A stretch of 64,000 nt of DNA from Candidatus Omnitrophota bacterium (GCA_022705945.1 JAKJDL010000001.1:53047-117046); one strand, 5' to 3'; counted from the stretch's first letter, positions 1,517 through 7,500 are shown. Numbers and translations: made by a program. The notes: generated by a model not told the origin, from the sequence alone.

Positions 1517-4500
1517 TTACGCCGAGATCGCGGTCTGCCGGAGGGCCGCAAGGTCGATCACGATCTGCTTGAGCATATTGGCAAGCGACTCGTTCGTCGC
1601 CTTGAGCACACCGTCCTCCATTGTGAACGGGATGTCCTTGAGCAGTTCGCCAGCCTCCAGATCAAGCTGCAGACTCGTCACGGCATTATACTTCTCCTCG
1701 TTCAACTTCTGCGCATACCGCACGAGGCCACTATAGGCCGCAGCGTCATTCCCCACAATCGAGCTTTGATAGTCGAACGTCACAGTTTTCGCGCGATTAG
1801 TCAGTCTAAGCAGGAGATCCTTGAAAACCTCCCTATCGACCTGGTTAACCGCCACCGCCGTCTTTGCCGTGATCTTGTTTTTCTCGACCCACTTTCTGAG
1901 CTGTTCTGCCGTTAGAACGTCAAACCGCTTCCCGAGCCGGATATCGATTTGTTTGTCGAGAAGGCTCCCGTTCCATTTCTGGACCTCATCCCGCATGGCA
2001 ACCGCCAAAGTCCTTCCATCTTCGAGAACATCCGTCTCGAGAACGCCCACCCTGAATCTTATCCCACTATTCAGCGCAAGCATGATCTTGATCATGTCAA
2101 GCTGCATCCTGTAGGTGTTTTTCGTCATGAGCACCAGGGCATCGCCCTCCTCCGAGGTCACCGGGATCGCCCGGCCTTCCGGCAGCGCGTTGATCACCTT
2201 GAGCATTTCACCGCCCAGCGCCGTTGCGAGACCGGTTAAAAGTTCCGAGGCCTTTTCAGGAGTACTCTGATACAGGTCCAGGATCCCCCACACAATCATC
2301 GCTACCCTGATCGCGGCGTCCGTCGCGCGATCTACGTCCGCGAGCTTCACCAGAGAAAACTTCCTCTTCTCCAGCAGTTCCCTCTCACCCGCCGGAACCC
2401 TCTCCATGATCTTCTCGAGACCGGCTTTCGTGATTCCTTCTTCTTTCATGATCCCTTCTTCCGTAATCTCTCCTTCAGTCAGCCTAACCGCGGTCAAGAA
2501 AATCATCGCTTTCTCGAGCGGCATGGCCTCCCTGACTATAAAAGGCAGATCAATGGGAAGGAACGCAATCTCGTTTTGCAAGGTCGCGGAATTATAATGA
2601 ACAATCCTGATCCGACCCCCGACCACGCTGATCCCGACCGCGTAGTTGATATCCACCCGGCCCTGCCCATTCGGCCACTTGATATGGACCGAGGGCGTTC
2701 CGGCCCTGTCGCTCTCCTCCTGCCAAACTTCCACGCCGAATCCGCGAAGCGTTTTGGCAGCCAGCTCGATTTGCAATTCCCGCTCAAGCTCGGCCTTCGT
2801 GGCTTCAAGCCCTGCCTTTTCGGCTTCAAGCCCGCTCCGTTCCGAAATCAGCTTATTCACATCTTCGGGTGTGCGCTGGCTCCCTTCCGACGGAAATAAA
2901 TCGTCAATTGCTTTTCTAGCTTCATTGATCTTTTCTTTTATTTGACCGATCTCCGTATTGATTTGCTCGATTGCTTCTTTATAAATCTCATCAATACTAC
3001 GCTCCCCCCGAATCTCAGCCCGTCCTCTCGTCTCGCTCCGAACTTCAGGAACCTTTTGGGAGAGATCTGTTTCCACGGTAAAAACCACCGTCCGACTCAC
3101 GGGATCTATTGCAACTTCTAAGACCGGTTGGTCGGGATGGGCTCTTAAATAATTCCTCGGAAAATCTGATTTGTTTCCCGTATTCCGAAATTTCACAACC
3201 GGAGAAAATCCGGAACCAAAATATAAAACCAAACCCTGGGCTTGAAGATTATTCTTGACGACCTCTTGAAGATTATTCTTGACGACCTTACCCGACACTT
3301 TTCTTTCAAGTGCCGCGACATAATCGTTAAGAGCGGCAACGAATAACCCCACACTATCTCCGACACGGAGATAATCATTCCATATCCGTTGAAACGCCAA
3401 AGCCTCCAGGTAATAAGGCGCGAACGCGACCGGACCTGTTGTTGCGTCAATATTCTTGCCCCGGTTCAACCATTCCTCCGTCTTCAAAAGTGTGGGCGGG
3501 TTTTCGTAGAGCGCGGGCGGGAGATTAATCTCCTGTTCCAAAGCAGCCTTCCGGCCCCTCGCGGGCGGGAGATTAATCTTCTGTTCCGGAGCAGCCTTCC
3601 GGCCACTCTCTAACATTTTCCGGATCCCATCGAACTTGCGGAGTGCGTCATCCAATTCCTGATCCCTCACCTCGCTTCGGACCTCAGGAGCCTCGTTCGG
3701 CAGTGTTCGACCGCTGAGAATCTGGTCCATCCCGGTGAGCCACTCTTTTGGTTTGATAACATCACCATACACATAACTATCAAGATGCGAAGCTTCTTCC
3801 AATTTGCCAATCATGTATTCATAGGCTTTTGCTAAAAATTCTCGTATCTCCTGCTCACCGGCCGTCAACAACAGATCTCCCGTCCAATGTTTAGTGCCGT
3901 TTACATCAACGTACCCATTTTGATTCTCAGGAATATATACAACCTTCACCACCCACAGACCTATCTCCCTTTCTATGCTTGTGACGGGACTCCCCTTCTT
4001 CTTAAACTCCGCCAACTCCCTCACCTCGCTCCGAACTTCAGAAGCCTCTTCGGGGAGGATGGCAACGGCATCGCCGACCATTTGGCGATATGCCGCTATT
4101 TCCTCGTTCGTATTTTTACGAAGGTCATGGTTCCTCTCAGCCCTATTGAACCATTCAAGCCTATCGATCATCTTGTTGATTCTTTCAGCCAAATCCGCTC
4201 GCACCGCGGTATCTGCTTCTTGCAAGCTTTGAATAGACGCACGGATCCTGGGCTTCAATTCAGCCATCACCTCCGACCCGTTCAGCCGCCGCTCGTTCCA
4301 ATCATGCCACCATTTCTCAATCGGGGACCACGGCCTGTTTTCACGCATTCTCGAAGCGCTTAAATCCTCCAGCAAACCTCTACCCAAACTTACGATGCGC
4401 CTTGAAAAGCTGGAACTCCGCCCCATGACCAAACTCAAAAGAATATTGGCCGCGCCTGTCACGGCTACAGCTCCGGTCGCGATCTGAGCCAGTGTTCGGG

Positions 4501-7500
4501 CTTCACCAAAAAAATGTCGCCCTGCAACCGCCGATATCCGGCCATATGCCACTTCAATCAGAGTCAGAAAAACAATCAGGGCAGGAAACCCATACAAAGC
4601 GAGAGATCCCAGGAACAGCATATCCCTGAGAAGCGGCTCCCTAGGCGTTCCTTCACGTTGCGCACGCGCCAACGAGCCCCGAAGATCTTCAAGCCCGCGG
4701 ATGAGGGACTCGATGTGCCCTCGCGCCCCATCCGGATCCGAAACAACCGACTCGGGAAAAACGTAGTCGATCGAGACACTGCCCGGCACCTCGTCCCGAT
4801 AAGCTTTCTTGACGATGGATTCTCCCGCCTTCATAAGCCCCACAAAAGCAGGGCCTGCTTCTTCCTGCGGCCATTCCTCTTCCGTTGCGGCCAGAAACGC
4901 GTGGGCACGCGCAATCAATGTATCAATATCGTTTATGACATCGGCTAGCTTATCGGGGCCCATGCTCTTCCTCAATTGGGCCCTTGCCTCCGCGCGGGCG
5001 GTGACGCGAACACCCTGCACCATTTTGTTGAGCCATTCAATATCAGTGATCTCGTGGATATCGGGATTGGCCATCGGCAACCTCGGATTGTCAAGAATGC
5101 GCTCGATCTTCCCCTTGTTCGCCCGGAACCAGTAACCACCCTCGTATAAAAGATGTTTAGAATACAAACGCCTGAGATATTCCGCCATCCTCTGCGCGAC
5201 CCTCAATCTCGCGGCGCGGTCCGACTCGGCCGGAATGAGGAAATGCGCGTTCCTGTCCCCATGGAACACAATCATCTTTCTGCCCTTGCCGTCGTATTCC
5301 AGCGTCACCGTCATCCATGTCGCTTCCCCCCTCGCCTCGGAGCGGCGGGCGTATGGAACTTCGCTACCCGGATGTCCTTTCTCTTCAGTGATTTCCCGAG
5401 CCTCAGCGGGTATGGCGGGCTTCATAGCGGGAACGGAAACAGCACCATCATCCTTCCCCTGGAGTTTGGATGCTAAATAATCCACAGGATGAGCAAACCA
5501 CATAGCAAGCACAATCGGCGATATCATCAGTAGAACACTCACCGGCAAAACAAACGCCGCAACAAGCGTCACGATCGGCGCCACAACATATGAAGTGACT
5601 TTGACCGGGTCCGAAAAGAAATCCCGCGCCCCGGAGCGGGGGCTAAGTTGCTCTTCCATCTTTTTGATCTCGTCTTCGGTCTTGCGAATCTCTACTTTGA
5701 GACGGGTCTTTTCGGTTGCGTTCCTTATTGCTTCCTGGAACCGCATCCATCCAAGCTGAATACGCAGCACTAAAAGACGATAGGCAAGGGGATCGGCCAA
5801 AGTTCTACGAATGTCCCGGATAAAGACTTCAGGCCGAGAAAAACGCCGGGTTTGGTCCAGACCCAGCGCTCCCCTGACAAACTGCGCGACGGCACTCATG
5901 CCTTCGATGAATAAGAAAGTCAGGCCTCCCGCCATGACCGCGACGATTACGCCGATAGTCCCGGTCAGAATCACGCGGGCGGATAAGCCCAATTCCGGAT
6001 TTGCTTTAAAAAATGAGAGTATCCCAACAATCGCGCCCGTGACAATGCCGCCGAAGATCGGAACAAACACATTGACGGGAACGCCCTTCTGCTCTCTCAC
6101 CTCGGAGCGGGTTGTAACCTCAATTGGAGTAACCGGCTTGATCTCTGGCTTAGGCGCACTTAACCGGTTAAGCGGACCCATCGAAGCAGTAACAATCCCG
6201 TCGATCGTGACGGAGGACGACTCGGCCGTTCGTGACACCACTTTATAACGGCTCTTCATGGGTTGCCCCCGGGCATCCACGGCGGGCACAATTCGGATCC
6301 CGTTCTTGGCGGCAACCAGTGAATCGTTGAAAATAGCAATCACGGAATCAATATCGGTTTCGCCGACCTTTGCCATCGCATTGAGAATCACGGCATAAAC
6401 GTCCCCGATCGAGACACCCTGCGCGACCTCAGCGATGAGCGGCATCAACTTGGAGGCCATTTCGAGATATGAAACATCAAAAAGGCGCGGCTGGTTCTGG
6501 AGCATGGCCGTGCGGTAAAGCTTCTCATCAGACTTTTCGGAGAGGCGGGGTGTCAGAATGCCGTAGCTGATCTCGTTTTGACGGAGGATCTCGGATACGC
6601 CGTCGGTATGGAAACCGCCGGTCACGAGAGCAACCTTCGTCACGGAACGCCCATACATGACCTCAGACATCTTTTTATAAAAGGCCGATTCACGGGCGCG
6701 GGCGTAGTCGTAAAAATCATAGGCGGCGTCGTAGAGTTCCGTCACGGCGGAGCGGAACTTCGGGTTCACCTCTTTCGTCTCGAAGGATGTTTCCGCCAGC
6801 TTGTGCTCGGCATTGACGGCCTTTCCAAGGGCCTTCAGTCGTTCGACAATCGGGTCGATCGCCACGGCATCTTTACGGGACATGATCCGGGCCCAGTCAC
6901 TGCGGGTCAGTTCGAGATTAAGAAGCTTCCTGACCAGCTCGCCGTCCCGGTAAAGAGCAAGGAGTTCCTTTTGCGAAGGGGTCTCGGCAAGCTTGTCCAG
7001 GATCGAGTCAAAAAGACGGTTGATCTCGGCGAAAAGGCCCTTCGAATCGAGCTCGCTTTTGAGAATGAGATAACCGGCCTGGACGCTGAAATTGGGATAA
7101 TCACTGAACCTGAAGCCTTTCGGAGCGGCTTCCCGGGCGAGGCGTTCGAGAAGATAGCGCGGCTGGACGGCCTCGGCCACACCGCCGGCGCCCTTGCGCG
7201 TGACGTTGATGTGCTGGTCGCGGAAATTATCGATCGCGCTGATGAGATCCGCGGGGAGGCGCTTCTCCTTCATGAACCTGAGGAGCGCGTCCTTTTCCGT
7301 GAGGGCGCGTGCCGGGTCGAGCTCCTTTTCCATCTGCTGGAGGACAAGGAGGCGCGTCACCTGCGGCCACTCCACCTGGGCGAAAAGGCTTTCGAGATCG
7401 AGCTTGAGGATCTGCCTGGCGTCTTTCGCAAGGCTTTTCACGTAGGGCATAAACTCACGCTGGCCCTTTTCGAACTTTTTCCACTCGGCAAGCATGCGGC

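Follow-up and report, generated by a model that had tools for sequence, protein, structure and literature searches.

A five-residue peptide motif, R-[S/A]-E-x-R, punctuates a family of very large proteins of Candidatus Omnitrophota. The member from which the analysis started is encoded in a stretch of 64,000 nucleotides (nt) from a Candidatus Omnitrophota bacterium (GCA_022705945.1 JAKJDL010000001.1:53047-117046), hereafter called the window. The motif is enriched in this family and restricted to it, it is under purifying selection at the protein level, and in one clade it marks the borders of a conserved N-terminal domain (N-domain), of each variable "cargo" module and of a conserved C-terminal domain (C-domain). 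The reading that survives best is that a bacterial polyprotein is processed by site-specific endoproteolysis at the motif, and the chances for and against it seem about evenly balanced. The evidence for the motif itself is described first, followed by the conserved domains, the competing explanations of its function, and the relation of the family to known systems.

The motif in the window protein

The gene in question and the motif copies found in its product, which is identical to protein P0001, are as follows.

1517-8125, minus strand: open reading frame (ORF) of 2202 amino acids (aa), with the family plan of N-domain, variable cargo and C-domain
6095-6109, minus strand: motif copy 1, RSEVR, aa 673-677, between the N-domain and the first membrane block
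5330-5344, minus strand: motif copy 2, RSEAR, aa 928-932, additional to the four copies of the preliminary description
4982-4996, minus strand: variant RAEAR, aa 1044-1048, a possible extra site
4019-4033, minus strand: motif copy 3, RSEVR, aa 1365-1369, preceded by SEV
3665-3679, minus strand: motif copy 4, RSEVR, aa 1483-1487, preceded by PEV
3026-3040, minus strand: motif copy 5, RSETR, aa 1696-1700, preceded by PEV
3008-3022, minus strand: variant RAEIR, aa 1702-1706, one residue past copy 5

A preliminary description of this DNA had reported four copies of an octapeptide, each encoded by conserved DNA. All four copies are present where they were placed, but the fifth (RSEAR, aa 928-932) and the two RAExR variants had been overlooked. 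The octapeptide needs to be shortened, because [S/P]EVRSE[V/T]R occurs only three times (starting at aa 1362, 1480 and 1693), whereas the core common to the copies is the pentapeptide R-S-E-x-R; the PEVR- extension is specific to the window protein and is not part of the motif. Likewise, about 30 nt are alike around three of the copies, but the similarity of the DNA ends there. The proposed position of one copy directly before the first transmembrane block is borne out, the copy at aa 673 lying eight residues ahead of the first hydrophobic block. From the composition of the protein 0.058 copies of RSExR would be expected and five are seen (Poisson P=5e-9), and among 5000 shuffles of the sequence there were never more than two. 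No other credible gene of the 64-kb window contains RSE[VAT]R.

Enrichment and sequence of the motif across the family

A search with the window protein gave 86 homologues, all 86 from Candidatus Omnitrophota and 1.3-3.8 thousand aa in length, in which the shared part corresponds to the first 25-30% of the query and the rest of the sequence carries assorted Pfam domains. These proteins contain 332 copies of RSExR against 4.2 expected, an enrichment of ~80-fold, and no other pattern composed of three residues, a free position and a final residue is as common in them. Altered and permuted versions stay at background in the same 86 proteins (RExSR 2, RESxR 5, KSExR 4, RSExK 4, RSDxR 8). An independent set consisting of 106 further proteins, the new ones among the top hits of an exhaustive hidden Markov model (HMM) profile search with the N-domain, contains 235 copies against 4.8 expected. 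Single chains carry up to 20 copies. In 14 loci the motif reaches a density of 2.3 per 1000 aa within family ORFs, compared with 0.107 in other ORFs of at least 150 aa; ten homologous loci came from a single-sequence search, and the density and codon counts given here were made over the 14 loci. The preliminary description had named a frequency no higher than chance, irregular placement and confinement to one protein as observations that would speak against its view of the motif; the motif is instead enriched ~50-80-fold, regular in its placement and present in hundreds of proteins.

The variant RAExR is also enriched in the family (95 against 6.5 expected). The two forms stand side by side within single proteins, and the motif is thus R-[S/A]-E-x-R; Thr is rare at position 2. 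Ser is replaced by Ala in ~20% of the sites, often within one protein, and a lineage-specific switch from Ser to Ala is ruled out by the presence of both forms in the same proteins. In a logo of 330 unique instances the information is confined to five positions and the flanks are free, which indicates a short linear motif rather than a repeat unit. The free position x is mostly V, A, M, L, T or S, and the residue at -1 is weakly A, S or G.

Placement relative to protein modules

The suggestion that the copies mark domain boundaries is supported by the homologues. Pfam boundaries were mapped in thirteen of them, and the motif was never found inside a mapped domain; it often brackets domains at 4-16 residues, and blocks of homology stop at the motifs. 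P0053 and P0032 provide examples. In P0053, a methyltransferase domain (988-1155) is flanked by motifs at 942 and 1173 and a receiver domain (2222-2342) by motifs at 2213 and 2350, and in P0032 a receiver domain (716-833) is flanked by motifs at 696 and 837. Successive motifs have a median spacing of 213 aa, about the size of one protein. The segments between them include response regulators, methyltransferases, phosphoribosyltransferases, fragments of PPDK and GAPDH, trypsin-like domains, and orphan or membrane segments.

Comparison of cargo between family members gives the same picture. In BLAST alignments, a motif lies no more than 10 aa away from 32-37% of the ends, whereas the figure for random positions is 8%. 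In cargo alignments at 20-50% identity, 54-71% of the motifs pair with another RSExR, against 0.8-7.5% for control windows, and the motif persists in cargo no more than 20-40% identical. No motif was found within the N-domain across the family. The first motif follows the conserved GGFH of this domain by 50-250 aa in 51 of 76 proteins, and the last one is situated 250-350 aa from the C-terminus, just ahead of the C-domain, in 45 of the 80 complete proteins with at least two motifs.

Selection on the peptide rather than on the nucleotide sequence

In 96 instances from the 14 loci, the motif Glu (GAA/GAG) and the last Arg (all six codons) use their codons at background frequency, and the motif Ser is encoded by both TCN and AGY. 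Counts of the 9-mer CGYTCYGAR are 74 for frame 0 of family genes, but only 4 for other frames, 6 for antisense and 17 elsewhere. These varying synonymous codons and the enrichment restricted to the reading frame indicate that selection acts on the peptide. RNA structure was sought at the five window sites and none was found (z from -0.2 to +1.2), and an Rfam scan of the window gave no match. An RNA hairpin or a strand-independent DNA motif was therefore dismissed as the primary explanation. All five window copies have the form GAG-NNG-AGR, which resembles an internal Shine-Dalgarno sequence; an internal Shine-Dalgarno-like element (GAGGTGAGG) was likewise dismissed, since the GAG/AGR pattern fails in other loci.

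Architecture of the window protein and the conserved domains

Members of the family share a frame of a signal-like segment, an N-domain of ~570 aa, variable cargo and a C-domain ending in [S/A]-A. In the window protein, where membrane helices were called by a simple hydropathy scan (Kyte-Doolittle), the segments are arranged as follows.

8033-8089, minus strand: N-terminal hydrophobic segment, aa 13-31, ending ...AFA/AP, with an equivalent segment in homologues
6320-8035, minus strand: N-domain, aa 31-602, defined by alignment, an AF2 model and profile matches
5885-6085, minus strand: hydrophobic block 1, aa 681-747, about two helices
5480-5608, minus strand: hydrophobic block 2, aa 840-882
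4421-4624, minus strand: hydrophobic block 3, aa 1168-1235
1520-2806, minus strand: C-domain, aa ~1774-2202, core ~1882-2202, delimited by phmmer/jackhmmer from the last 450 aa
1520-1609, minus strand: C-terminal amphipathic tail, ending ...LAALRQTAISA-COOH, in agreement with the family consensus end [S/A]-A-COOH

The segment at aa 13-31 is inferred to be a Sec-type signal peptide or a signal anchor. Pfam and NCBIfam scans of the full-length window protein gave no match.

The N-domain has twelve invariant columns in an alignment of 22 members reaching down to 20% identity (H81, Q87, E109, G140, E146, G161, Y472, R478, G503, G504, H506 and P526). Its AF2 model, with a predicted local distance difference test (pLDDT) score of 82.8, has a ~300-aa helical insertion flanked on either side by beta-alpha-beta elements of the core. 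The exhaustive profile search found 10,202 cluster representatives at 50% identity, 7,169 of them at E<=1e-30. Several features tentatively make the N-domain a candidate hydrolase of the TIKI/TraB/ChaN/Ere superfamily. Pfam ChaN (PF04187, Tiki superfamily) matches 4 of the 22 members (best E=6e-4), with no match reported for the window's own N-domain, and Pfam Ere matches one (E=0.032); no model was shown to reach its gathering score. By hhalign, R-E...GGFH aligns with E-R-D...GQAH of PrgY (E=0.02 and 0.003), at the second motif only. Bcr135 (H85/E113) and RRSP (H3902/E3930) have the same His-x27-Glu spacing, and RRSP, a MARTX effector, is a sequence-specific endopeptidase of the TIKI family (PMC6254334). 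With the TIKI/TraB-PrgY-GumN/ChaN/Ere proteins the N-domain shares the His-x27-Glu pair and a Gly-x-x-His preceded by Arg-Glu/Asp, and its predicted alpha/beta core may correspond to theirs. PrgY and Tiki are extracytoplasmic and membrane-tethered, as predicted for the N-domain, and some members of the superfamily are endopeptidases. The N-domain differs from them by its ~300-aa helical insertion, and the similarity is at the detection limit.

The C-domain has no match in Pfam or the PDB. A word-indexed homologue search with the C-terminal 1273 aa returned only the query, yet phmmer/jackhmmer from the last 450 aa found relatives in 71 of 115 complete family proteins over ~300-420 aa, with E down to 1e-24. 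The lack of homologues in the word-indexed search therefore does not mean that the C-domain is an orphan. Among the 192 family proteins, 116 end in [S/A/M]-A-COOH and 115 in [S/A]-A, and this ending is preceded by the pattern of a ~30-residue amphipathic helix. One idea, offered as such, is that the [S/A]-A tail resembles C-terminal secretion or recognition signals.

The cargo region of the window protein also contains in-frame tandem micro-duplications (minus strand, 3241-3288, 3512-3608, 2784-2834 and 2425-2461). The units are VVKNNLQE twice, with DNA 100% identical, GRKAA(P/L)EQ(K/E)INLPPA twice, and two shorter arrays. They suggest an ongoing, rapid expansion of orphan cargo sequence.

Possible functions of the motif

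A processing site is suggested by the combination of one strict short site at every junction, free flanks, very short spacers and units of the size of a protein. The giant chain would be cut at R-[S/A]-E-x-R into the N-domain, single cargo proteins and the C-domain. Tolerance of both Ser and Ala at position 2 argues against a phospho-acceptor or a self-cleaving nucleophile, and Ser, Ala and rarely Thr at this position, together with strict Arg, Glu and Arg, would fit subsite recognition by a protease. As for the enzyme, the leading candidate is the N-domain, which may cleave in cis or between paralogues. It comes first to mind because it is the only catalytic-looking part common to the members and because TIKI proteins can be sequence-specific endopeptidases; this is the weakest step of the proposal, and that the N-domain is the protease must be called doubtful. 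In P0053, three trypsin-like (Trypsin_2) domains occur as cargo between two motifs (aa 1427-2110). These are a possible trans-acting protease for Arg-containing sites; such domains are absent from most members. A complete self-processing polyprotein system can be envisaged, in which an exported TIKI-like N-domain cuts R-[S/A]-E-x-R in cis or between paralogues and so frees dozens of enzymes and membrane modules, the motif splits chains including those of >10 thousand aa, and the C-domain with its [S/A]-A tail serves as an export or assembly handle. That this scheme would hold in all its parts is unlikely.

Several observations weigh against cleavage at the motif or against the N-domain as its agent. 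Proteolysis is deduced wholly from sequence statistics. The AF2 prediction of aa 1242-2202, made with no alignment, has a pLDDT of 37 and is unusable for judging the exposure of linkers; the motif-bearing part has no alignable relatives, and its local structure could therefore not be modelled. The scores that place the N-domain in the TIKI/TraB/ChaN/Ere superfamily are weak: a Foldseek comparison of its model with the PDB had no significant hit (best E=0.11; EreC at rank 38, E=2.8), and searches of PDB sequences with a single sequence, the N-domain profile and a spliced core profile gave no match. The N-domain is predicted to be exported, whereas many of the cargo domains are typical cytoplasmic enzymes, and the membrane blocks lying between the N-domain and four of the five window motifs make cleavage in cis topologically uncertain. 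The family also contains members of ~1000 aa that consist of N-domain and C-domain with zero, one or occasionally two motifs, most of them having none. A sister clade (P0075-P0080, P0135-P0192) keeps the invariant His/Glu/His of the N-domain and lacks R[S/A]ExR; its proteins end in -SL-COOH, not in -[S/A]A-COOH, and carry an HExxHI (zinc-protease-like) module once per protein. A substitute punctuation motif was looked for in this clade and none was found. Retention of the N-domain in the motif-less clade and in the minimal members implies that it has a function independent of the motif. The codons of the motif also belong here. The first Arg is CGY in 87% of the sites, compared with 42% where Arg-Ser occurs elsewhere in these genes; the Ser is TCY in 72% against 35% and AGY in 6% against 36% in the background; and G occupies the third position of the x codon in 65% against 32%. 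This CGY-TCY-GAR-NNG bias is not predicted by a pure protease-site model. Depletion of AGY fits toggling between Ser and Ala, TCN to GCN being one step, but does not account for the rest of the bias. The window copies are atypical in this respect, three of the five using CGR-AGC.

Rather than being cut, the chain could stay whole, with the motif acting as a docking or recognition site at the junctions that is read by a chaperone, a secretion component, an adaptor, or the protein's own N- or C-domain. The enrichment, the conservation of five positions, the boundary placement and the restriction to the family fit such a signal equally well, and the conserved N-domain, C-domain and tail suggest that the chain may work or travel as one unit. 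On the other hand, the same pentapeptide recurring up to 20 times per chain with spacers of 4-16 aa is more typical of processing sites, and no candidate reader of the motif is known. Uncleaved docking is accordingly rather improbable, and more so than cleavage. The codon bias could alternatively point to a signal read during translation where modules meet. Such a signal might, for instance, be a programmed pause that allows co-translational folding or membrane targeting, and it would depend on the peptide together with CGY-TCY-GAR-NNG. Its position at domain borders and the confinement of the bias to the motif, other Arg-Ser dipeptides of the same genes being free of it, would agree with this. 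However, the preferred codons CGC and TCC are common rather than rare, the Glu and the last Arg are unbiased, RNA structure is absent at the sites, and known arrest peptides are longer and act in the ribosomal exit tunnel with conserved context, whereas the flanks here are free. A translational signal is therefore very unlikely.

A junction at the level of DNA, that is, a micro-homology or recombinase target for the exchange of cassettes with the peptide as a tolerated by-product, would account for the ends of homology blocks at motifs, for the partial nucleotide consensus CGY-TCY-GAR and for the highly shuffled and orphan nature of the cargo, and in the window and the loci L002 and L007 a homologue of an IS200-like Y1 transposase is encoded 230-260 nt downstream of the family gene. 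The 9-mer is, however, enriched in the sense frame 0 only, the Ser comes from both codon families and the last Arg uses its six codons at background, three unconstrained synonymous positions lie in the middle of the site, and purifying selection keeps the motif in old, diverged orthologous cargo. We consider this origin highly unlikely. The proposal of the preliminary description that the copies are scars of module duplication within the gene, and with it the notion of a chance low-complexity feature of an Arg/Glu-rich protein, can be regarded as refuted. Three window copies do share their ~30 nt and the [S/P]EVR extension, and the gene does have small in-frame tandem duplications, but alignment of the segments between motifs revealed no duplicated modules (best E=0.014 over 92 aa), the flanks are unconserved in the 330 family instances, and chance is contradicted by the Poisson probability in the window protein and by the family-wide enrichment with permuted controls at background. 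Among these explanations, endoproteolytic processing at R-[S/A]-E-x-R is the one that we favor.

Gene neighborhoods

Several paralogues of the family occur per genome. In the locus L001, two of them are in tandem (10001-15427 and 15866-25427; 1808 aa and 7498 aa), as are two in L013 (3-9210 and 9917-19148), which are broken up over several frames, probably through frameshifts introduced in assembly. The window is syntenic with L001 (FtsA, glycine-cleavage genes, LipB, UvrD and the family gene). The gene order upstream of the family gene (FtsQ/FtsA, glycine-cleavage T/H/P, LipB and UvrD) is kept between positions 8430-20866 of the window (minus strand) and positions 1-9515 of L001, indicating that the giant gene lies in an ordinary housekeeping neighborhood and in no obvious mobile island.

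The Y1 transposase homologues mentioned above are on the same strand as the family gene in all three loci (window 610-1257, minus strand; L002 21392-22048; L007 18793-19437) and are 46-51% identical between loci. The three loci otherwise differ in their neighborhoods, and L003, which is syntenic with L002, is without the transposase. The element could represent target-specific insertion at the 3' end of the gene, or a functional partner.

Comparison with known processing and sorting systems

The architecture itself is modular and polyprotein-like, which is a known kind. MARTX toxins are likewise very large, with conserved ends and shuffled, unrelated effector modules; their modules are freed by cleavage of linkers, whereas processing is proposed here. 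Cleavage sites of MARTX toxins are Leu-based, unlike R-[S/A]-E-x-R. The Omnitrophota family also differs in having an N-terminal Sec-like signal instead of type I secretion, in belonging to another phylum and in carrying many cargo domains of housekeeping type. Membership of the MARTX group was rejected, since the window protein contains neither RTX repeats (Pfam/NCBIfam) nor a C80 cysteine protease domain (Pfam).

Viral polyproteins (3C/3CL/NS3-type) similarly reuse a short strict site with free flanks at each junction, and they encode the protease within the chain, as is proposed here. As in polyproteins, a short site is reiterated here at the borders of independently folding units. Differences are that the Omnitrophota proteins are products of cellular chromosomal genes, have no homology to viral proteases, and possess membrane segments and conserved terminal domains. 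The furin/kexin site R-X-K/R-R is also short and Arg-rich and serves in the maturation of secreted precursors. It was rejected as a model because the present motif has no dibasic pair, has an obligatory Glu as its third and a small residue as its second position, and tolerates Lys at neither end (KSExR and RSExK being at background), and because no S8 domain was found in the window protein.

The idea of a sorting tag, raised in the preliminary description, does not hold for the signals of sortase, exosortase and rhombosortase (LPXTG, PEP-CTERM and GlyGly-CTERM): the motif is internal and present many times per protein, and a hydrophobic segment follows within 40 aa in only 32 of the 332 copies. 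It is not a Tat signal (S/T-R-R-x-F-L-K) either, as its arginines are not adjacent and it is not N-terminal. Self-cleaving Ser sites (pyruvoyl enzymes, SEA and Nup98-type) were excluded by the replacement of Ser by Ala and by the absence of a conserved domain around the motif.

Implications for the giant proteins of Omnitrophota

The Omnitrophota, a widespread group of ultra-small bacteria that probably live as predators or parasites, possess giant genes that rank with the longest known and whose products are almost entirely uncharacterized. Giant genes (bioRxiv 10.1101/2023.11.21.568195) and "multi-enzyme metabolic cluster" proteins (bioRxiv 10.64898/2026.06.07.730766) have been described from the phylum. 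With the present family they have in common signal-peptide and membrane-helix calls, tiling by enzyme Pfam domains and the question of whether the chain remains whole or is cleaved; a junction motif, the two conserved domains and the tail are absent from both preprints, and their size thresholds are 10-80 thousand aa, compared with 2.2 thousand aa for the window protein. Cleavage points were stated to be lacking in the giant proteins, and for this reason one group did not cut the chains up before predicting their structures (bioRxiv 10.1101/2023.11.21.568195). Literature searches for the motif strings and for processing in Omnitrophota yielded no relevant publication, and the motif, both conserved domains and the whole family appear to be undescribed.

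The motif defines a very large family of >7,000 clusters at 50% identity, whose conserved N-domain looks catalytic and whose C-domain is new. As a five-residue junction signal with hundreds of independent instances, it offers testable candidate cleavage sites and a simple rule by which giant proteins can be segmented for the prediction of structure and function. If the proposed processing is correct, it would represent a chromosomal polyprotein strategy in bacteria on a scale known mainly from viruses and MARTX toxins, and would provide a new pair of specific protease and site with possible use as a tool. The motif is the first concrete candidate for where the giant proteins of Omnitrophota are cut.

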